DNA from: Candidatus Omnitrophota bacterium
GTDB taxonomy: Bacteria > Omnitrophota > Gorgyraeia > VGKH01
Direction: 5' to 3'
Length of the DNA: 64,000 nt
Assembly: GCA_022703055.1 (NCBI GenBank)
Contig: JAKLEP010000001.1
Location: 154,850 to 218,849 of the forward strand
In this document: piece after piece, positions 4,017 through 35,829 of the stretch
Numbering within the stretch: the first letter of the stretch is position 1
Layout of the letters: every line of letters begins with the position of its first letter
The notes under the pieces: generated by a model
What the model saw: only the letters and a program-made list of their open reading frames with translations
Told to the model about the DNA's origin: nothing
The model's database searches: none
Program-made: the position numbers and the translations under genes

Positions 4017-5282
4017 ATGAGCAGATTTAGAGAAATATTAAAAAATAAGAATTTTTCTTTATTATTCGTAGGTCAGATTGTCTCGCAGTTCGGAGACAGG
4101 ATCATTCAGATGGCCCTAATCGCGCTTGTCTATGCGGTTGCCCCGGGCTCAACCTTCCAATTGGCTAAAATAATTTCTTTTACCATAATCCCGGTTTTCC
4201 TTATTGGTCCGGTGGCCGGGGTGTATGTCGATAGGTGGGATCGCCGAAAAACCATGCTTATTAGCGATCTATCGAAGACGATTTTAATGTTCATAATACC
4301 TTTAGTCTTTATGTCTATGGATTCTTTGATTTTAATCTACATAGTAATATTTTTGGTCTTTTGCATCAGCCGGTTTTATGTGCCGGCCAAACTTTCAATA
4401 ATCCCCGACCTTGTCCAAGAGAAACAATTATTAATCGCCAATTCCCTGGCCAATATGACCGGCATGGTTGCCGCAGCATTAGGTTTTGGCTTGGGAGGGA
4501 TTCTCGTTGATTCTTGGGGCGCAAAAGGCGGATTTTATTTATCTGCCGGATCATTTTTATTTTCCGCGCTAACCATCCTTTTAATTGGCACAAAGATAAT
4601 GGGTCATATCAAGAAAAACGAGATTTTCGAATTAGGCAAAGAGGTAATGGAGGTTATCAGAAAATCAGTGGTTGCCGAGATTAAGGATGGGGTATTATAT
4701 TTAGTGAATCAAAAGGAGATAAGCTTTATTGTTAAGATTTTATTCTTATTATGGTCGGCGTTAGGCGCTATTTATGTAGTCTCGATCGTCTTTGTCCAGC
4801 ATGCCCTGGGTACGGTGACAAAAGACCTGGGACTTTTGATAATGTTTTTAGGCTTGGGGCTGTTTGTAGGCTCTTTAGTCTATGGTAGGCTGGGACATAA
4901 GATTTCTCATTTAAAAATTATATTCTTTTGTTTTACATTAAGCGGAATTGTGTTAAACTCTTTTGTTGTTGTTTTAACAGCCTACCCGGTTTTTATTATC
5001 GCTGCAATTTTAGCTTTTATTTTCGGCTTGGTTGTTTCTCCGATCATGGCAGCGGTCAATACCCTGGTCCATGAGGCGAGCACAAGCTCGATGAGGGGCA
5101 AGGTTTTTAGCTCTTTAGAGATAGTCATGCATTTTGCGTTCTTGCTTTTTATGTTGATAAGTTCCAAACTCGCCGATGTAGTTGGTGAGTCTAGGTTTTT
5201 ATTATATTTAGGAATCGTAATAATTGTTGTTGGAATAATCGGTATCATAAAGTATTCTTTTGTAAATAAAGTTAATATATGA
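4017..5282 (+). CDS. MFS transporter
   Basis: About 12 predicted TM segments. N-terminus NFSLLFVGQIVSQFGDRI and DRWDRRK loop are typical of MFS_3-type exporters. ATGA overlap into rnfC. Confidence 0.75.
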   Translation: MSRFREILKNKNFSLLFVGQIVSQFGDRIIQMALIALVYAVAPGSTFQLAKIISFTIIPVFLIGPVAGVYVDRWDRRKTMLISDLSKTILMFIIPLVFMSMDSLILIYIVIFLVFCISRFYVPAKLSIIPDLVQEKQLLIANSLANMTGMVAAALGFGLGGILVDSWGAKGGFYLSAGSFLFSALTILLIGTKIMGHIKKNEIFELGKEVMEVIRKSVVAEIKDGVLYLVNQKEISFIVKILFLLWSALGAIYVVSIVFVQHALGTVTKDLGLLIMFLGLGLFVGSLVYGRLGHKISHLKIIFFCFTLSGIVLNSFVVVLTAYPVFIIAAILAFIFGLVVSPIMAAVNTLVHEASTSSMRGKVFSSLEIVMHFAFLLFMLISSKLADVVGESRFLLYLGIVIIVVGIIGIIKYSFVNKVNI

Positions 5283-9268: not shown

Positions 9269-9347
9269 AAGTAGATAGGAGATAGCAGGTAGTAGGTGGG
9301 GTTTTTTAGAGTCAGCCCCAAGACCTACATTCTACCTACTACATACT
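9269..9347 (+). promoter_or_regulatory. Long imperfect hairpin filling the rnfA-rnfB intergenic gap
   Basis: Purine-rich 5' arm (9269-9301) pairs with pyrimidine-rich 3' arm (9316-9347). GGGG 9298-9301 pairs with CCCC 9316-9319. Outer AAGTA/TACTT pairing abuts the rnfB ATG. Confidence 0.55.
9324..9341 (-). repeat. 18-nt exact repeat TAGTAGGTAGAATGTAGG (reverse-strand copy)
   Basis: CCTACATTCTACCTACTA at 9324-9341 is the exact reverse complement of 31442-31459. Confidence 0.9.
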
Positions 9348-27036: not shown

Positions 27037-27270
27037 TTTATAATAGTGGGGTAAACAAGGATTGATTACGTTGCGATTGAAGTGTAGCCAAAGAAGCCTA
27101 CCGGAACACAAATTTAGATTTAAAATCGCATTAGAAAAGATTTTAGGACAAATTTCTGCAATGGCGCAGAGGAGCTAGAAGCTGCATTGACGCAGTGGCT
27201 TGGATGAAGTGTTTTTTGTTAAGCTGCAAAGAAGTCCTCATTTTTAAACATTTATAAAAGGGAGAATAAA

Positions 27271-29490
27271 ATGCCTACCGTAAGCGTCAAAGACGTGAAA
27301 ATCACTAAAGAGATAATTGAAAAAGAAGGTTTAACCATGGAGGAATATGATCGGCTAAAGAAGCTGATCGGTCGAGAGCCAAATTATACGGAACTCGGCC
27401 TTTTTTCTGCCATGTGGAGCGAGCACTGTTCCTATAAAAATTCCCGCCCCGTTTTGAAATTGTTCCCCACTAAGGGAAAACAAGTTCTTCAAGGCCCGGG
27501 AGAGAATGCCGGTATCGTGGATATCGGCGAAGGATACGGTGTGGCTTTCAAAATGGAATCGCATAATCATCCCTCGGCTGTCGAGCCTTACGAAGCATCG
27601 GCCACCGGCGGCGGCGGATGTCTTCGCGATATCTTCACCATGGGTGCAGATACCGTGGGTTTGCTTGGTTCCTTAAGATTAGGAAGGCTCACCGATAAAA
27701 AAGTAAAATGGTTATTCAAAGAAATCGGACGCGGTTTCAGCAGCTACGCTAATGTTGCCTTGGTTCCTATCGTGGGCGGAGAAATTTATTTTGATGAAAG
27801 CTATGAGGGAAATCCCTTAGTCAATGCTATGACTGTTGGCGTGGTAAAACACAATGAAATTACCCGCGCCAAAGCCGCAGGAATCGGAAATATCGTAGCC
27901 ATGATCGGCGGAGATACCGGTAAAGACGGTGTAGGCGGCGCAGCATTCGCATCCGGCGCTATTGCCGAAGGTGCAGAAGAAGATACTTCATCAGTTGCTA
28001 TCGGTGATCCGGTAATGGGATTAAAACTAAGACGGGCCAGCCTGGAACTTATCAGAGCAGGCGTCGTCGTAGGAATGCAGGACATGGGCGCAGCCGGTTT
28101 AGTGTGTTCAACTTCCGAGACTGCCACCAAAGGCGGAGTGGGAATTGAAATTGACTTAAATAAGGTAAGAAAAAGAACTCCTGATATGAATGCCTATCAG
28201 ATGATGCTTTCCGAAAGCCAGGAGAGAATGTTGGTCATTTTGGAAAAGGATAAAATCGAAGACGCCAAGAAAATCTGCTCAAAACACGGCGTGCCCTTAG
28301 ACATCATCGGCTTTGTGAAAAAAGGCGATAAGCTCACGGTCAAAGAAGGCGACACCGTGGTGGCGGAAGTTCCGGCAAGAGCCTTGACCGAAGATGCCCC
28401 GGTTTACATCCGCGAAGAAAAAGAGCCAGATTTTTCCCAATACAAATTAAATCTTGGCGACATAAAGGAACCTAAGGATTACAACCAGACGTTCTTAAAG
28501 TTGCTGAGTTCATCGACTATTGCCGATAAGAGCATGGTTTATTCTAAGAGCGACCCCAAGTTATTCGGTAACGTCGTGGTAAAACCCGGCGAAGCTGATG
28601 CCGCAGTAATTAAAGTTGTCGGCAAAAGAGGATTTGCCGCCACCGCAAATTGCAACGGCACCTACTGTCGGATTAATCCGCGTTTAGGCGGACAGATTGC
28701 CGTCGCTGAATCAGCGAGAAACCTGGCTTGCGTTGGCGCAAAACCACTGGGACTCACCGACTGTTTGAATTTCGGCAATCCTTTTAATCCGGAAGTTTTC
28801 TGGGGATTCAGGAAATCCTGCGAAGGAATCTCGGATGCCTGCAAAGCTCTGGATGTGGCGGTAGTTAGCGGAAACGTCAGTTTCCACAATGAGAATCCTA
28901 AAGGCACAGTTGATCCTACCCCGGCAATCGGCATGGTGGGAGTGGTTGAGGATGTAGGAAAGGTCGTCAAGCAAAGCTTCAAGTCCGAAGGCGACACAAT
29001 CATCCTTTTGGGTGAAAATAAAAATGAGCTGGGCGCATCAGAATATCTAAAGACTCTCTACAATTTAAAGAAAGGCGATGTGCCAAGCCTGGATTTGAAA
29101 CAGGAAAAGGCGCTGGTGGATACTTTGCTTTCAGCGATTGACAAGGGCCTGGTTGTATCAGCCCATGATTGTTCTGAAGGCGGAATCGCCGTGGCTTTGG
29201 CGGAAAGCTGCATCACTGATAAGAAAATCGGCGCGAGCGTAAAATTAGATGATAAGAATATGCGTAAAGACGCGCTTTTATTCGGCGAGACACAATCGCG
29301 GGTCATCGTAAGCGCCAAACCCCAAGACGCAGATAAAATCCTGGATATCGCTAAGAAAAATAAACTCTCGGCAAAGATTATCGGTAAAGTCGGTGGAAAC
29401 AAACTGGTTATCAACGACTTGATTAATCTCACCACTGATGAATTATCCAACACCTGGAGAACGGCGATAGAGAAGGAATATAATAGCTAG
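27271..29490 (+). CDS. purL: Phosphoribosylformylglycinamidine synthase II (small PurL)
   Basis: 739 aa. EPNYTELGLFSAMWSEHCSYK and ESHNHPS motifs. SD AAGGGAG upstream. Confidence 0.92.
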   Translation: MPTVSVKDVKITKEIIEKEGLTMEEYDRLKKLIGREPNYTELGLFSAMWSEHCSYKNSRPVLKLFPTKGKQVLQGPGENAGIVDIGEGYGVAFKMESHNHPSAVEPYEASATGGGGCLRDIFTMGADTVGLLGSLRLGRLTDKKVKWLFKEIGRGFSSYANVALVPIVGGEIYFDESYEGNPLVNAMTVGVVKHNEITRAKAAGIGNIVAMIGGDTGKDGVGGAAFASGAIAEGAEEDTSSVAIGDPVMGLKLRRASLELIRAGVVVGMQDMGAAGLVCSTSETATKGGVGIEIDLNKVRKRTPDMNAYQMMLSESQERMLVILEKDKIEDAKKICSKHGVPLDIIGFVKKGDKLTVKEGDTVVAEVPARALTEDAPVYIREEKEPDFSQYKLNLGDIKEPKDYNQTFLKLLSSSTIADKSMVYSKSDPKLFGNVVVKPGEADAAVIKVVGKRGFAATANCNGTYCRINPRLGGQIAVAESARNLACVGAKPLGLTDCLNFGNPFNPEVFWGFRKSCEGISDACKALDVAVVSGNVSFHNENPKGTVDPTPAIGMVGVVEDVGKVVKQSFKSEGDTIILLGENKNELGASEYLKTLYNLKKGDVPSLDLKQEKALVDTLLSAIDKGLVVSAHDCSEGGIAVALAESCITDKKIGASVKLDDKNMRKDALLFGETQSRVIVSAKPQDADKILDIAKKNKLSAKIIGKVGGNKLVINDLINLTTDELSNTWRTAIEKEYNS

Positions 29491-29508
29491 GAATATAGCG
29501 AAATGTAA

Positions 29509-29555
29509 GAAGTCCTTCGACAGATCCCGGATCCATCGAAGGACTTCTTTATTTT
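29509..29555 (+). terminator. Rho-independent terminator after purL
   Basis: GAAGTCCTTCGA/TCGAAGGACTTC 12-bp perfect stem (29509-29520 with 29536-29547), then TTTATTTT. Confidence 0.85.
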
Positions 29556-29574
29556 CGGTTGTTGAGGTGGTAAG

Positions 29575-29880
29575 ATGAAAAAGATTTTGATTGTTTTGGT
29601 GTGTTTGGTGTTGGTTGGATGCGGATTGTGCCCGGCATATATGAGAAGCCAATCCGATTATATGAAAGTTTCCAATATCGCTATCGGTGGCGCATCAAAA
29701 TCGAGAGTAAAAATGATGTTCGGAGAGCCTGATTCAAAAGAAGTTTACGAAGATAAATCAGAAAAATGGATTTATAAAAATAGAGAAGATAATAAGACTA
29801 TCGTGTTTCTATTTACTCCTAGTGGCGCTGTTGGCTTGACGCAAATTATTCCGCCAGAGGGCGTAGAACAAAATAAATAG
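29575..29880 (+). CDS. Small lipoprotein (BamE/SmpA-OmlA-like, tentative)
   Basis: Lipobox LVGC. SRVKMMFGEPDSKEVY...W.Y resembles SmpA/OmlA domains. Confidence 0.5.
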   Translation: MKKILIVLVCLVLVGCGLCPAYMRSQSDYMKVSNIAIGGASKSRVKMMFGEPDSKEVYEDKSEKWIYKNREDNKTIVFLFTPSGAVGLTQIIPPEGVEQNK

Positions 29881-29934
29881 GGGACAGGCTTAGGAATAAA
29901 TCGGAGAAGGTCCCTAAATTAACAGGAGAAATGT

Positions 29935-31173
29935 ATGTCAAAGAACCCAGATTTAGGTTTTTCTCATTTTTCAGTTAAACAACTGAAAAGATATTATGAT
30001 AATGGAGAAATTTATATTAATCCAGAATATCAAAGAAGTTTTGTTTGGAAACCTACCCATCAAAGAAATTTGATTACTTCCATTCAAAATGGAAAATCAA
30101 TGGGTGTATTAGTGATATGGAAAAATAAGCAGGGCAAATACGAAATCTTAGATGGCCAACAAAGAATAATTACAATAATAAAGTTTCTTGACAAAAAATT
30201 TACTAATGATGAAAACAAGCAATTTGACGAACTTTCCGTTACAGAACAATCAGAAATAGAAGGATACAGTATTTATTACCTTGAGCTTAAAACTACTTTA
30301 AAAGAAGATGAGATTTCAGATATCTTCACTAGATTGCAAGAAGGGATACCTTTAAATCCTGCTGAAAAAGTTAACGCACTTAGAGGTCTATTTAGAGATT
30401 TTTTTATGCAAGCATACATTAGAAATAAGATTTTTTTTGAAAAATTAAATAATCATAGATTCCGAGCTCGATTATTAGCAGCGCAACTTTTATTATTAGA
30501 ACTCGAAACAAATTTTAATAAGAAAATGTTTCCTAACGCAGAATACGAAGACTTTAAAAGCATAAATAATAAATATTCTCAAAGAAATATTTCTTCGCAA
30601 AAAATAAAAGACTATAATAATTATTTAAATTTCTTAGGATTTAGATTGCAAAAAGAATTAAGGGCGATTAATTTTAGAGACTTGATTTCGTTGTATCTAT
30701 TAGTTTCTTTTCTAAGTAAAACAAGCGTAAATAAAGGTGATCTCTCGCTTTATATCAGAAAATTTGCAATAGAATTTATTAATAATTTGGAAAGTTTTAG
30801 TATATATAAACCAATAAAGCCAAAAAATTTGAATAAAAAAATATTTAATAGATATGTAGAGTATAAACAATATGCTAGGCAAGCAACAACGGCAGAATCA
30901 TTTGAAAGACGGTTTAAGTTCATACTTTCTGAATATAAGCGCTTATTCCCAAATATTAAATTTAAAGATAAGAATAGATTATTTGAAGAAAGACAGAAAA
31001 TACAAATATATTTTAAACAAAAATGCTTGTGTGCTTTTTGTAAACAACCCTTAGTTTATGAAGAGGCTCATTGTCATCATAAAGACGAATATTCAAAAGG
31101 TGGCAAGACAAGAATATCTAAGGGCGCAATGGTGCATTTTAAATGCCATAATAAAATTCATCACAAAAAATAA
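29935..31173 (+). CDS. DUF262 (ParB-like NTPase) + C-terminal HNH nuclease protein (GmrSD/SspE-like)
   Basis: N-terminal INPEYQRSFVW and ILDGQQRI DUF262 motifs. C-terminal CAFC...HCHHKDEYSKGG...FKCHNKIHH HNH motif. Markedly AT-rich gene. Confidence 0.78.
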   Translation: MSKNPDLGFSHFSVKQLKRYYDNGEIYINPEYQRSFVWKPTHQRNLITSIQNGKSMGVLVIWKNKQGKYEILDGQQRIITIIKFLDKKFTNDENKQFDELSVTEQSEIEGYSIYYLELKTTLKEDEISDIFTRLQEGIPLNPAEKVNALRGLFRDFFMQAYIRNKIFFEKLNNHRFRARLLAAQLLLLELETNFNKKMFPNAEYEDFKSINNKYSQRNISSQKIKDYNNYLNFLGFRLQKELRAINFRDLISLYLLVSFLSKTSVNKGDLSLYIRKFAIEFINNLESFSIYKPIKPKNLNKKIFNRYVEYKQYARQATTAESFERRFKFILSEYKRLFPNIKFKDKNRLFEERQKIQIYFKQKCLCAFCKQPLVYEEAHCHHKDEYSKGGKTRISKGAMVHFKCHNKIHHKK

Positions 31174-31207
31174 CAAGATTGTCTATTGATAAATTTAGGG
31201 AGATGAA

Positions 31208-31363
31208 ATGGTAAAGTGGGTCCGATATTTAGTGATAAAAACATTACAATTTCTCGGAATTGATATTATAAAGGAGAACAAAGAACTTCAGGATAGAGTG
31301 CTTGAGCTTGAAAATAAACTGAAGCAGTTGGATTCTACGCAAAATGAAAGCTATCTTCACTAA
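31208..31363 (+). CDS. Possible 51-aa coiled-coil protein (below ORF-track cutoff)
   Basis: ATG preceded by AGGGAG. Translates to MVKWVRYLVIKTLQFLGIDIIKENKELQDRVLELENKLKQLDSTQNESYLH. No homology assessable. Confidence 0.3.
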   Translation: MVKWVRYLVIKTLQFLGIDIIKENKELQDRVLELENKLKQLDSTQNESYLH

Positions 31364-31441
31364 AACATAGGACCGTTTCCAGATAAGTAATTGTAATTTA
31401 ATAAGTTTTGATAGAAGTGTCCCCGTTCAGTAGGTAGGGGT

Positions 31442-31459
31442 TAGTAGGTAGAATGTAGG
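31442..31459 (+). repeat. 18-nt exact repeat TAGTAGGTAGAATGTAGG (forward copy)
   Basis: Exact reverse complement of 9324-9341. Preceded by the related CAGTAGGTAGGGG. Confidence 0.9.
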
Positions 31460-31502
31460 GCAATTATATTTCGGAGGTTATATGGCAAAAAATAAAGTAC
31501 TC

Positions 31503-31556
31503 ACCCGCGCCCTTTCACCCGTAGGAGCGATTCTTTGCAGTAAGAAAGGGCGGGGT
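31503..31556. repeat. Third, degenerate copy of the CCCCGCCCTT...GGGCGGGG hairpin element
   Basis: ACCCGCGCCCTTTC (31503-31516) pairs with GAAAGGGCGGGGT (31544-31556), 13 bp with a 1-nt bulge. The reverse strand reads AACCCCGCCCTT, identical to 10150-10161. Confidence 0.6.
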
Positions 31557-31563
31557 TAAATTC

Positions 31564-31618
31564 GCAGACGGCCTTTGGCCTACGACTTACGTCGCTAAAG
31601 CTTCCGTAAGTCGTCTGC
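31564..31618 (+). promoter_or_regulatory. Three-way-junction-like structured leader before the LOG-family gene
   Basis: GCAG/CTGC closing stem, GGCC-TTT-GGCC mini-hairpin (31570-31580), ACGACTTACG/CGTAAGTCGT 10-bp hairpin (31582-31614). Then AAGGAG and the ATG at 31637. Confidence 0.45.
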
Positions 31619-31636
31619 TCAACTAAGGAGTTGAAA

Positions 31637-32284
31637 ATGAAGAAAGTTTTAAAGGATGATTTTACCACGGAAGAGACTTGGCGGATTTTTAGGATTATGG
31701 CCGAGTTTGTGGAAGGTTTTGAGGTTTTATCCAAAATCGGGCCGGCGGTTTCCATTTTTGGCTCGGCAAGGCTAAAGCCCACAAACCAGTATTATAAACT
31801 TGCGGTTGAAACTGCCAAGCTTCTGGTTAAAGAGGGCTATGCGATTATCTCCGGCGCCGGCCCGGGCATCATGGAGGCAGCCAACAAAGGCGCCAAAGCC
31901 GCCAAAGGCCAATCCGTGGGCTTAAATATCGAAGTTCCGTCAGAGCAGAGGCCGAATTCCTATGTGGATATCCTTTTAGATTTTCATTATTTCTTTGTGC
32001 GAAAAGTCATGTTTGTGCGCTACGCCAAGGCATTCGTGATTTTCCCCGGCGGATACGGCACGCATGATGAATTGTTTGAGTCCTTAAATTTGATTGAGAC
32101 GCTAAAAATCCCCAAATTCCCCGTAGTTTTAGTGGGAGCAAAATACTGGAAAGGGCTGTTCGACCATCTTAAAAATTCCGTCATCAAGGAAGGTTGCTTA
32201 AAGAAGGAAGAGCTGGCGATTATGAAAGTTGTGGATACACCGCAGCAAGTTGTGGAGGAGATAAAGAAGTTTTATCATAAATAG
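31637..32284 (+). CDS. LOG-family (TIGR00730-type) nucleotide 5'-monophosphate nucleosidase/phosphoribohydrolase
   Basis: GSAR...GGGPGIMEA-like region (SGAGPGIMEAANKGA) and the PGGYGTHDE motif. The ATG at 31637 has better SD spacing than the listed TTG at 31631. Confidence 0.8.
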   Translation: MKKVLKDDFTTEETWRIFRIMAEFVEGFEVLSKIGPAVSIFGSARLKPTNQYYKLAVETAKLLVKEGYAIISGAGPGIMEAANKGAKAAKGQSVGLNIEVPSEQRPNSYVDILLDFHYFFVRKVMFVRYAKAFVIFPGGYGTHDELFESLNLIETLKIPKFPVVLVGAKYWKGLFDHLKNSVIKEGCLKKEELAIMKVVDTPQQVVEEIKKFYHK

Positions 32285-32334
32285 GTTACGGTCAGGGTAA
32301 CGAAGCCCGTATCGGTTAAGGTAACGGTGGCGTA

Positions 32335-32736
32335 ATGGAAGAGAAAAAGAGAATAACAAGTTTTAAAGACTTAGAAGTTTATCAGAATTCATATAAGGCT
32401 ATGCTTGAAGTTATGAAAGAGGTTGTGCCTAAGCTACCGGATAGCGAAAAATACGATTTAAAAGACCAATTGAGCCGAGCATGTAAGGCGATTCCCAGAT
32501 TGATAGCTGAAGGTTATGCTAAGCGTCATCAAAAGTTCGGTTTTCAGAAATATATTGACGATGCAATGGGAGAATGTAATGAGATGGTTGTTAGTTTAAG
32601 TCAGGCTAGAGATATTTATTCTGCACAGGTCAATAATAGTTTTTGTGATGGGTTAATTGATATTTACGATAAAACAGGCAGGCAACTTTATAAATTAGGC
32701 GATAGTTGGACGAATTTTAAAAGACGCCAGACGTAA
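32335..32736 (+). CDS. Four-helix-bundle protein (23S rRNA intervening-sequence protein family)
   Basis: FKDLEVYQNSYKA...DQLSRACKAIPRLIAEGYAKR matches the family hallmark. Flanked by a 19-nt imperfect inverted repeat. Confidence 0.8.
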   Translation: MEEKKRITSFKDLEVYQNSYKAMLEVMKEVVPKLPDSEKYDLKDQLSRACKAIPRLIAEGYAKRHQKFGFQKYIDDAMGECNEMVVSLSQARDIYSAQVNNSFCDGLIDIYDKTGRQLYKLGDSWTNFKRRQT

Positions 32737-32781: not shown

Positions 32782-34194
32782 ATGAAGATGAGTAAAGACA
32801 GGCCTAAAGAATATTGCGGACTTTTCGGCATTTTTGGCCATAAAAATGCCACTGATCTTACCTATCTTGGCCTTTATGCGCTGCAGCATCGTGGAGAAGA
32901 ATCCTGCGGTATTGTCTCAAGCGACGGCAAGGATTTTTATCTGCACAAAGAAATGGGTTTAGTCGGCGACGTCTTTAACCGGGAAATCCTGGCTAAATTA
33001 AAAGGCGATATCGCCGTGGGACATACCCGATATTCCACTACCGGTTCAAGCGTGATTAAAAACGTCCAGCCGCTTTTTGCCAATCATCGCGATAAATCTT
33101 TAGCCATTGCCCATAATGGAAACCTGACCAATAGCTTTGCCTTAAAGAAGAAATTGGAATCGCAAGGCTCGATATTCCAATCATCCTGCGATAGCGAGAT
33201 CATCATTCATCTGATGGCGAGAGAAAAATCTCCGGATATCGTGGAGAAATTAAAGGGCGCACTAAAATCGGTTGAGGGCGCGTATTCTTTGATTTTAATG
33301 ACCCAGGATAAACTTATCGGCGTACGCGATCCATTGGGATTCCGTCCGCTGGTTTTGGGCAAAATCGGCAATGCCTATTGCTTAGCCTCCGAAACTTGCG
33401 CCTTTGATTTGATTGAAGCAAAATATATCCGCGAAATCCAGGCCGGAGAAATCGTGGTCATTGATAAAAACGGGATTAAATCGTATAGATTCGCCGCGCA
33501 AAAAAAGAAGGCCCAGTGTATTTTTGAACATATCTATTTTTCCCGTCCAGATTCATTTATCTTCGGCCAGACCGTGCATTTGGTCAGGCAAAGCTTAGGC
33601 GAGAGATTAGCCAAAGAACATCCGGTAAAAGCGGATTTGGTGATTCCGGTGCCGGATTCCGGGATGTCTTGTGCTTTGGGATTTTCCCATGCTTCCGGGA
33701 TTCCGCTTGAATGGGGGATTATCCGTAACCATTATGTAGGCAGGACTTTTATCCAGCCGCATCAGGAGATAAGAGACCTGGGAGTAAAAGTTAAGTTTAA
33801 TCTTCTAAAAGAAGTGGTCAAGGGAAAAAATATTGTGATCGTAGATGATTCGATTGTGCGCGGGACAACTTCTAAGAAACGTATAAGAGGATTCCGCGAG
33901 GCAGGGGCCAAAGAGGTACATTTAAGGATCGCCTGTCCGCCGCATCGCTTCGCCTGTTTTTATGGTATAGATTTTCCCACACAGTCCGAATTAATCGCCC
34001 ACAAATACAGCATTAATAAAATTAAAGAGTTTTTAGGAGTTGATAGCCTGGGTTATTTAAGCGTTGAGGGAATGCTAGCTTGCGTGAAAGATAAAGCTAA
34101 TTATTGTACTGCATGTTTTAGCGGAAAATACCCCACGAAATTTGATAAAAAGAATACTAAATTATCACTAGAAAACAAATGCGAGAAAGGATAA
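32782..34194 (+). CDS. purF: Amidophosphoribosyltransferase
   Basis: Propeptide followed by CGLFGIFG Ntn active-site Cys. PRPP loop VIVDDSIVRGTT. C-terminal Cys ligands for an Fe-S cluster. Confidence 0.92.
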   Translation: MKMSKDRPKEYCGLFGIFGHKNATDLTYLGLYALQHRGEESCGIVSSDGKDFYLHKEMGLVGDVFNREILAKLKGDIAVGHTRYSTTGSSVIKNVQPLFANHRDKSLAIAHNGNLTNSFALKKKLESQGSIFQSSCDSEIIIHLMAREKSPDIVEKLKGALKSVEGAYSLILMTQDKLIGVRDPLGFRPLVLGKIGNAYCLASETCAFDLIEAKYIREIQAGEIVVIDKNGIKSYRFAAQKKKAQCIFEHIYFSRPDSFIFGQTVHLVRQSLGERLAKEHPVKADLVIPVPDSGMSCALGFSHASGIPLEWGIIRNHYVGRTFIQPHQEIRDLGVKVKFNLLKEVVKGKNIVIVDDSIVRGTTSKKRIRGFREAGAKEVHLRIACPPHRFACFYGIDFPTQSELIAHKYSINKIKEFLGVDSLGYLSVEGMLACVKDKANYCTACFSGKYPTKFDKKNTKLSLENKCEKG

Positions 34195-35214: not shown

Positions 35215-35829
35215 ATGAAAAATAATAAACAGAGAGTACTTATTTTCTTGTTTGTTGTTGCAGCTATTTTTTTAGCGCGTTTTGCTTTTGCCCATTGTGA
35301 TACTATGGAAGGGCCGGTAGTTAAAGACGCAAAAATTGCCTTGGAGAAATCCGATATTACTCCGGTCCTAAAATGGGTAAAACCGGATCGCGAGGCAGAA
35401 GTTATTATTGCTTTTGAAAAGGCTTTGTCGGGAAGAAAAACGCAAGATAAAGAAAAATCAGATATGGGATTTTTTGAAACTTTAATCCGTATCCACCGAG
35501 AAGGTGAAGGCGCGGGTTTTGAAGGAATAAAGCCTGCGGGTAGCGAGGTTGAACCGGCGATAGTAGAAGCAGATAAAGCTTTGGAAGAGGGTAAGGCCGA
35601 TAATTTGATTAAATTAGTTACAGATGATGCTGCCGCCGGGATAAAACAACGTTTTGACAATGCCCTGGAGAAGAAAAAACACAAGGATGAAAGCGTTGAA
35701 CTAGGTCGGGAATTTGTCGAGGCCTACGTAGAATTTACGCATTATGTGGAAAGGCTGCATAAAGATATTTTAGGCGAGGTTTCGCATCATGGCGAACATC
35801 AAGAGGCAGAAAAAGAACATAAGGAATAA
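35215..35829 (+). CDS. Secreted hypothetical protein, mature N-terminus HCDTMEGPVV, His/Glu-rich C-terminus
   Basis: Signal peptide ..ARFAFA|HCDT. SD AAGGAG. C-terminus HHGEHQEAEKEHKE. Inserted between purM and purD. Confidence 0.6.
   Translation: MKNNKQRVLIFLFVVAAIFLARFAFAHCDTMEGPVVKDAKIALEKSDITPVLKWVKPDREAEVIIAFEKALSGRKTQDKEKSDMGFFETLIRIHREGEGAGFEGIKPAGSEVEPAIVEADKALEEGKADNLIKLVTDDAAAGIKQRFDNALEKKKHKDESVELGREFVEAYVEFTHYVERLHKDILGEVSHHGEHQEAEKEHKE

Follow-up and report, generated by a model that had tools for sequence, protein, structure and literature searches.

A DUF262 NTPase that senses (modified) DNA, and whose nucleotide turnover licenses a His-Me nuclease, underlies the activity of GmrSD, BrxU, SspE, HEC-06 and GrwA (PMC4619093, PMC4437046, PMC8565348, PMC9646914, PMC12137116, 10.1101/2024.01.29.577857, PMC12065111). 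In the Menshen system, the protein NsnA combines a ParB-DUF262 domain with a ParBDB sensor (PMC12065111). Comparative genomics has further shown that the ParB-like core of COG1479 is often fused to HNH-type, PD-(D/E)xK-like or HEPN domains and has links to restriction-modification (R-M) and defence (Makarova 2013, PMC3632139), and ParB(DUF262)-HNH-HEPN combinations have been listed (Anantharaman 2013, PMC3710099). Here we describe a gene of this kind in a 64,000-nucleotide (nt) stretch of DNA from a Candidatus Omnitrophota bacterium (the window), where it lies in the pur biosynthetic cluster between purL and a LOG gene and encodes a protein of 412 amino acids (aa) with a DUF262 domain, a helical middle domain and a C-terminal HNH nuclease domain. 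We put at roughly 60% the probability that this protein is a horizontally acquired, solitary, NTP-regulated defence nuclease built like GmrSD, BrxU and SspE, and likely directed against phages. It is a genuine but rather unremarkable representative of a type of defence gene that is already known, a solid annotation rather than a surprise, because the joining of DUF262 to HNH has been described before.

The 412-aa protein resembles the GmrSD family (Eco94GmrSD, EcoCTGmrSD, BrxU, HEC-06 and GrwA) in being a single polypeptide with a QR- and DGQQR-bearing DUF262 domain, a helical linker and a C-terminal His-Me nuclease, and in its solitary or defence-island occurrence; BrxU is its best structural match. 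In contrast to the DUF1524 nuclease of GmrSD, with its (D/E)HxxP motif, the nuclease here is a zinc-finger PF01844 HNH domain (CxxC...HxxC, HH...K...H), and the protein also differs in length (412 aa vs about 580-620 aa) and in its putative motif III, which reads FxxxQ. The sequence-only reading had recognised a GmrSD/BrxU/SspE design; this holds for the overall architecture and fails for the nuclease, and because the latter belongs to PF01844 and not to DUF1524, the protein is not a strict member of that family. Sequence similarity to BrxU is limited to ~40 residues (E 0.17), and the window contains no BREX components. SspE likewise joins a DUF262 NTPase to a His-Me nuclease and gives a weak Foldseek match (7drs), but its nuclease is of another family, the 412-aa protein is only about half its size, and no sspABCD or dnd genes are found in the window. 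NsnA provides the best PADLOC match (6e-19), extending over DUF262 and part of the helical domain in line with a shared two-domain sensor logic; unlike in Menshen, however, neither an NsnB ABC ATPase nor an NsnC effector follows downstream, where a 51-aa open reading frame (ORF) and the LOG gene lie instead, and the effector is fused in cis. In sequence, the C-terminal 55 residues, with their HxxC-H zinc/metal arrangement, are closest to EcoKMcrA and the En domain of group II intron maturases, which work with other recognition partners (the N-terminal 5-methylcytosine reader of McrA and reverse transcriptase, respectively). It is the COG1479 'ParB-like and HNH nuclease domain' proteins, known from computational reports, that share exactly the same architecture class, and JGI labels a homologue 'uncharacterized protein with ParB-like and HNH nuclease domain'. 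The architecture itself, already noted in comparative genomics, is therefore not new; for the PF01844-type DUF262 branch, the literature searched yielded no biochemical or phage-challenge data.

A foreign segment in the purL-LOG spacer

In the window, purL (27271-29490, + strand) is followed by an intrinsic terminator (29509..29555, +) that delimits the ancestral spacer on its left side. Its 14-bp stem and the subsequent UUUAUUUU tract fold with a free energy (dG) of -29 kcal/mol (z -6.3), a value equalled in 0/200 shuffles, so that the terminator proposed in the sequence-only reading is genuine. Beyond it lie, on the same strand, a 101-aa lipoprotein-like ORF (29575..29880) with a signal peptide and the lipobox LVGC, the nuclease gene (29935..31173), which forms the core of the finding and was assigned by Pfam, AlphaFold2 (AF2) and Foldseek, and a 51-aa ORF (31208..31363) of uncertain coding status. 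The positions first given for these three ORFs and for purL all agree with the ORF listing. After ~270 nt of structured non-coding DNA, the LOG/TIGR00730 Rossmann-fold gene begins (31637..32284, +; NCBIfam TIGR00730 1.9e-40, Pfam Lysine_decarbox 2.3e-34). The sequence-only reading had the block splitting purL from purF; an insertion it is, although its right neighbour is the LOG gene and not purF directly.

The ancestral arrangement could be read from the closest PurL relatives, for which we queried PurL against a large protein collection and retrieved the respective contigs. In contig L090 (PurL 93% identical), purL is followed by 170 nt, the LOG gene and then purF, and in L093 (PurL 76% identical) the purL-LOG spacer measures just 25 nt; the block is absent from both. 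Contigs L091 and L092 (PurL 80% identical) carry at this junction an unrelated 157-aa ORF (L091 9388-9861; L092 3736-4209) that has no Pfam match and could not be annotated. According to the relatives' contigs, purL-LOG-purF is the ancestral gene order, with LOG as the ancestral downstream neighbour of purL. Because purL runs straight into LOG in L090 and L093, the block composed of the lipoprotein ORF, the nuclease gene and the 51-aa ORF is a lineage-specific insertion, and the comparison suggested by the sequence-only reading thus confirms that the block is not conserved at this junction. The different ORF in L091 and L092 suggests that the site behind the purL terminator is a hot spot for insertions. 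The reverse scenario, an ancestral block that was lost in the relatives, was rejected on account of the composition of the block, its orphan neighbours, the patchy distribution of the family and the two independent empty sites.

The left edge of the insertion is sharp, as the alignment of the window with the L090 spacer, which has an equivalent purL hairpin and T-tract, holds through the terminator and its T-tract to ~29574, immediately ahead of the lipoprotein ORF's start codon. The right edge is blurrier, with host-like composition resuming at ~31500; the hairpins at 31505-31625 are part of an intergenic element shared across the lineage. In agreement with the initial reading, neither an integrase nor a target-site duplication was found around the block, and convincing terminal repeats were likewise not found there. 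One candidate, a 14-nt inverted match of 86% (29542-29555 / 31489-31502), was judged to be due to chance or related to the terminator, because it is situated in A/T-rich terminator tracts. The foreign segment of ~1.9-2.0 kb (~29575 to ~31500) was acquired horizontally and landed in the purL-LOG spacer. Across six assemblies of the same species, obtained from different samples, the block shows 0 differences, the 17 single-nucleotide polymorphisms (SNPs) of these assemblies all being located in purL; the lack of polymorphism fits a recent arrival. The window and L090 thereby provide a clean before/after pair for studying the insertion of islets that lack an integrase.

The base composition of the block is clearly foreign. 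A scan of GC and of GC at third codon positions (GC3) identified the nuclease gene as the stretch of lowest GC in the 64 kb, bearing out what had been concluded from three 60-nt counts of G+C (14, 10 and 38), which were exact on recount. The minimum of the whole window falls on the 1.2-kb interval at 30001 (0.2725 vs a mean of 0.409, standard deviation 0.031). The nuclease gene has a GC of 0.272 and a GC3 of 0.206, as compared to 0.473/0.496 for purL, 0.433/0.452 for purF, and 0.43-0.47 and 0.45-0.54, respectively, for the pur genes overall; the lipoprotein ORF has a GC of 0.376. A nuclease homologue of 57% identity (L088 8001-9245) has 29% GC inside a genome of 57% GC, and the GC of the family stays at 28-33% across hosts of 31 to 57% GC. 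This low GC, whatever the GC of the host, indicates frequent recent transfer from low-GC donors.

Domains, motifs and predicted fold of the 412-aa protein

Pfam detects GmrSD_N/DUF262 (PF03235, E 1.9e-21) at residues 19-148 and HNH (PF01844, E 6e-6) at residues 366-411, with no match to DUF1524 (PF07510) at E<=0.01. The NCBI entry that is 100% identical to the protein is named only 'DUF262 domain-containing protein', and no NCBIfam model matches. PADLOC returned DUF262 sensors that cover the N-terminal part only, namely NsnA, REase_II (9e-18), PD-T4-2_A and HEC-06, the NsnA match extending to residue 239 and thus into the helical domain.

The AF2 model, computed from the family alignment, is confident (mean predicted local distance difference test score (pLDDT) 89.9, predicted template modelling score (pTM) 0.78) and consists of an alpha/beta ParB-like region (residues 1-150), an all-helical region (152-337) and a beta-beta-alpha region (379-411). 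The first of these (29935..30384, +) is the ParB-like DUF262 NTPase domain, recognised by its motifs and by Foldseek matches to ParB/Noc/KorB CTPase folds. The middle domain (30388..30945, +) is modelled as helices only, with pLDDT values of 81-97, and is the counterpart of the GmrSD linker or 'ParBDB' DNA-binding domain. The zinc-finger HNH (beta-beta-alpha-Me) nuclease occupies residues 352-412 (30988..31170, +), as delineated by conservation and PDB profile matches; its two strands (379-382 and 397-400) and its helix (402-411) form the beta-beta-alpha-metal fold. When compared with the PDB by Foldseek, the model matched BrxU (7p9k) best, over the whole chain (E 2.8e-4), followed by ParB/Noc/KorB CTPase domains, the Gme HNH nuclease 4h9d (root-mean-square deviation 2.5-2.7 A over 58 columns, probability 0.99-1.0), EcoKMcrA and SspE. 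A search of the PDB with the family sequence profile matched the maturase En domain 6me0 (1.6e-8), EcoKMcrA 6ghc (1.1e-5), the HNH domains of Cas9 and IscB, and again 4h9d (range 1.6e-8 to 1e-3). The assignment of an N-terminal DUF262 and a C-terminal HNH domain, initially made from motifs, is thus upheld by Pfam, by the PDB profile search and by the AF2 model.

To score conservation, we aligned 47 full-length homologues and used the DUF262 motif definitions of PMC12065111 and PMC4619093. Motif I (Y32, Q33-R34-x3-W38) and motif II (D73-G-Q-Q-R77) are invariant. In the region of motif III (F131-T-R-L-Q135), which was matched by eye to the FxxxN described for GmrSD (PMC12065111, PMC12137116), F131, R133 and Q135 are invariant (Q in 47/47). 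The zinc ligands are likewise retained (C366 in 46/47, C369 in 47/47, C404 in 46/47, and H401 as H in 39 and C in 7), as is the general-base residue H382 (47/47); the metal-binding H405 is H in 38 and N in 8 sequences, and H381 is H in 25 and D in 21. The HNH motif H381-H382-K-D-E has no proline, unlike the (D/E)HxxP of DUF1524. The sequence-only reading had spelled the nuclease motif HCHH...N...H; the HNH domain is indeed present, but its asparagine, N406, is not the motif Asn, the canonical positions being H382, K396 and H405. A check for degenerate sites by structure and alignment accordingly gave a divided answer, as the NTPase motifs, H382, H405 and the zinc ligands are intact while the Asn is replaced by Lys396.

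Family, effector domains and gene contexts

A hidden Markov model search of 1.84 billion cluster representatives returned 867 proteins at E<=1e-30, counted as clusters at 50% identity, and 10,566 at E<=1e-10. The top matches are for the most part 400-435 aa long and share this architecture from end to end, and the named sources include Omnitrophica, the candidate phyla radiation (CPR; Nealsonbacteria, Kaiserbacteria), Abyssobacteria and Flavobacteriaceae. Some members are extended at the N terminus, by pentapeptide repeats (which adopt a DNA-mimic fold), by a second DUF262 or by ~270 aa that carry no annotation (P0240, P0233, P0239, P0248, P0196, P0203, P0214, P0216). In sister proteins with 45-55% identity across residues 1-340, the HNH domain is replaced by HEPN_Swt1, with its Rx4H motif intact, or by the Schlafen domain AlbA_2; these variants keep the helical middle region, and the match stops at residues 343-353. 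Matches in phage genomes and plasmids are distant and mostly N-terminal, covering <=34% of the protein in phages, although one match in a Rhizobium plasmid, with an identity of 26%, spans 93% of the query. PHROG matches of the nuclease comprise families of unknown function as well as ParB-like and HNH families. The 412-aa protein thus belongs to a large uncharacterised DUF262 branch that has a zinc-finger HNH in place of DUF1524 and whose sensor also occurs on RNase and Schlafen effectors. Work on a single representative would widen the GmrSD/BrxU/SspE paradigm and might bring to light a modification-dependent enzyme not known so far.

The gene stands alone in the window. Consistent with the original description of a solitary system, PADLOC found no methyltransferase, dnd/ssp or BREX components among the 68 ORFs of the window, and Pfam annotation of the flanking 20 kb (+/-10 kb) revealed housekeeping genes and no ssp or dnd genes. 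Nor does any partner gene recur across the contexts of five homologues, which are mobile or defence-related. One (L087) is flanked by unrelated housekeeping and hypothetical genes, a second (L088) adjoins a PIN/MazE pair, a third (L094) has a BsaWI-type R-M pair and a staphylococcal-nuclease (SNase) gene in its vicinity, and a fourth (L095) resides within a conjugative element beside a PDDEXK gene, a C5 methylase gene and a MutH-like gene. The fifth (L096), a HEPN variant, adjoins a NACHT/STAND NTPase gene.

Proposed mechanism and alternative explanations

By analogy with the characterised DUF262 nucleases, we infer an NTPase and a nuclease activity, the kind of cue that is sensed and a role against phages. 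In the mechanism that we favour, the DUF262 and helical modules would recognise invading DNA, the cue most probably being a modified base, since a nuclease that has no cognate methylase at its side must leave the DNA of its host untouched, for which a modification-dependent (type IV-like) mode of recognition would be the simplest solution. Binding and hydrolysis of NTP at the QR/DGQQR pocket would then drive a conformational or dimer rearrangement, and this rearrangement would license the HNH site, with His382 as general base and His381 and His405 as metal ligands, to nick or cut the DNA.

Several observations weigh against this proposal. The transfer of the mechanism from GmrSD, BrxU and SspE, made by analogy, crosses nuclease families, as there is no DUF1524 here. 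The putative motif III is FxxxQ and not the FxxxN of GmrSD, though it is invariant throughout the family. The structural Asn of the HNH motif corresponds to Lys396, a position at which the family has N in 29, K in 8, H in 3 and D in 2 of 47 sequences, and the lysine could lower or abolish activity. A sigma-70 scan revealed no convincing promoter for the nuclease gene (16 sites vs 11.5 expected), and the lipoprotein ORF begins 20 nt past the purL terminator. Owing to the zero polymorphism of the block, purifying selection and the ratio of non-synonymous to synonymous substitution (dN/dS) are not computable. Finally, the HEPN and Schlafen variants suggest that the sensor may drive abortive infection rather than modification-dependent restriction.

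The last point leads to the main rival explanation, in which the DUF262 and helical modules would sense a phage cue, be it DNA or something else, and unleash a host-damaging effector, the HNH version cutting DNA indiscriminately after being triggered. We regard such an abortive-infection switch as unlikely, though as deserving attention: the same N-terminal 340 aa sit on HEPN_Swt1 or AlbA_2, effectors that are incapable of DNA restriction, the HEPN variant has a STAND NTPase as its neighbour, and COG1479 fusions have been suggested as possible programmed cell-death modules (Makarova 2013, PMC3632139). On the other hand, all characterised combinations of DUF262 with a His-Me nuclease (GmrSD, BrxU, HEC-06, GrwA and SspE) are DNA-selective (PMC8565348, PMC12137116, 10.1101/2024.01.29.577857), and no antitoxin-like partner is conserved beside the homologues. 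In a more general form, which we put forward tentatively and with considerable doubt, the 340-aa module would be a self-contained invader sensor with interchangeable effectors, and the family a single-chain abortive-infection system of the type 'sensor plus swappable toxin' rather than a type IV restriction enzyme. If this were true, comparing the three effector versions would reveal what the DUF262 sensor detects.

The lysine at the Asn position and the lack of a recognisable promoter behind a strong terminator would also suit a gene without present function, a recently gained passenger that is unexpressed or catalytically impaired. The zero polymorphism, consistent with a very recent arrival, and the orphan status of the neighbouring ORFs point in the same direction. 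We nevertheless consider a decaying passenger improbable, as the frame of 412 codons is intact at 27% GC, a composition that readily gives rise to stops, the remaining catalytic and zinc residues have all been preserved, the Asn position is variable in the family as a whole, and the protein is identical across at least six independent assemblies from different samples.

Hardly more credible, and if anything a little less so, is a selfish, free-standing HNH endonuclease of the homing type that would cut empty purL-LOG junctions and be copied in by repair. It would account for a single-gene insertion between conserved genes without integrase, target-site duplication or terminal repeats, for the presence/absence pattern among relatives at a repeatedly occupied site, and for an HNH domain whose nearest sequence relative is the maturase En domain. 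However, the five homologues reside in five unrelated, non-orthologous contexts with no conserved target, homing enzymes lack NTPase sensors of the ParB type, the effector has been exchanged for RNase or Schlafen domains, and phage genomes yield only the partial N-terminal matches described above.

Least probable of the functional alternatives, and in our view very unlikely, is a restriction arm of a host-modification-dependent system of the SspE or DndB type whose modification genes lie elsewhere in the genome. SspE shares this overall design and need not be linked to its partners, homologues of the 412-aa protein give weak Pfam matches to DndB (E 0.002-0.009), and the 64 kb analysed belong to a genome that measures 550 kb or more; yet dnd, ssp and methylase genes are missing from the window and, bar an unrelated R-M pair, from the surroundings of the five homologues, and the gene moves unaccompanied among hosts that differ widely in GC. 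A classical type II restriction endonuclease, to which the REase_II match of PADLOC might point, was rejected, there being no methylase in the window.

The small ORFs beside the nuclease gene

For the lipoprotein-like ORF, which is species-specific, a search of 5.8e9 proteins found only the protein itself, and no copy was present in the purL-LOG junctions of the relatives or in the loci of the nuclease homologues. A weak match of residues 1-73 to the PHROG family phrog_3135 (function unknown; E 6e-10) may owe part of its score to the signal peptide, and tblastn against phage genomes gave no match. If the phrog_3135 match were true, the block could stem from a phage moron, encoding for example an exclusion lipoprotein. 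The 51-aa ORF has a GGGAG motif 6 nt before its ATG and was called with 51 aa by NCBI and with 43 aa by JGI. It has no match in Pfam, PADLOC or PHROG, and neither it nor the overlapping 43-aa ORF has a homologue beside other members of the nuclease family or in any retrieved locus.

Elements upstream of the LOG gene

The region at 31.43-31.56 kb had been described as containing repeat elements. These are not of high copy number. In front of the LOG gene, the interval holds a motif of 18 nt that occurs once more in the window, a hairpin, and a structured element that is conserved. The 18-nt motif GTAGTAGGTAGAATGTAGG (31442..31460, +) recurs at 9323-9341 on the - strand. Both copies are intergenic, and two copies were seen in 0/100 shuffles; the one near 9.3 kb is followed by an inverted partner, CCTACTACC. 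The GC-rich hairpin CCGCGCCCTTTC...GAAAGGGCGGGG (31505..31555, +) has a host-like composition and is the probable right limit of the foreign DNA. Its arms, CCCGCCCTTT...AAAGGGCGGGG, precede the structured element, and in L091, 20-nt matches to them lie upstream of purB as an inverted pair (4510-4529 and 4628-4647).

The structured element itself, a three-way junction or hairpin of ~60-70 nt (31556..31625, +), is located directly upstream of the Shine-Dalgarno sequence and start codon of the LOG gene. It is an element of the host lineage and lies outside the nuclease gene. In its layout, AAUUC is followed by an outer stem of 4 bp, a mini-hairpin whose insertion is optional, an inner stem of 10 bp with the loop UCGCUnnnGCUUC, and finally UCAyUUAA. 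The window contains one copy, and a copy of 75% identity precedes purE in L090 (8693-8786). Scanning metagenome contigs with an exact-core pattern yielded 37 loci (L097-L133), the element being present in many Omnitrophota-like contigs, and in most of these copies a hairpin of variable sequence stands at the position of the GC-rich hairpin. At the eight stem pairs outside the fixed pattern, 93.8% of positions were paired, as compared to 73.4 +/- 2.3% in 2000 shuffles, none of which reached the observed value. The 34 sequences include 24 distinct stem variants, many of them compensatory (covariation). About two-thirds of the copies are positioned 10-35 nt before the start codons of housekeeping genes, such as dnaK, atpE, clpP, rplS, nusB, purE and ptsH (HPr). 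Rfam gave no match in 29400-32400 at E<=1 and, for the whole window, only three tRNAs. The element could act as RNA, in a 5'-untranslated or intercistronic region, or it could be a small palindromic mobile element specific to Omnitrophota genomes.

Further features of the pur cluster

Between the LOG gene and purF (32782-34194), a gene for a four-helix-bundle '23S rRNA intervening sequence protein' (IVP; 32335-32736, GC 0.356) is inserted, and a DUF6448 gene (35215-35829) lies between purM and purD. Both are single-gene interruptions that are absent from L090 and L093, with L090 carrying a tetratricopeptide repeat (TPR) gene between purM and purD instead. The spacers of the pur operon look like sites of recurrent landing. 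The lineage-specific genes that interrupt this cluster number at least three, and a tightly packed biosynthetic operon in uncultivated Omnitrophota still takes up single-gene defence cargo. The upstream part of the cluster varies as well. In L091 (6012-6716) and L093 (6007-6711), purC, encoding SAICAR synthase, is found between purB and purL, whereas in the window a 234-nt spacer (27037-27270) separates these two genes, purC having been lost from this position or moved. Within purL, comparison with L006 placed 14 of the 17 SNPs in a tract of 155 nt (28454-28608), 13 of these 14 at third codon positions, a cluster that looks like a short recombination tract.

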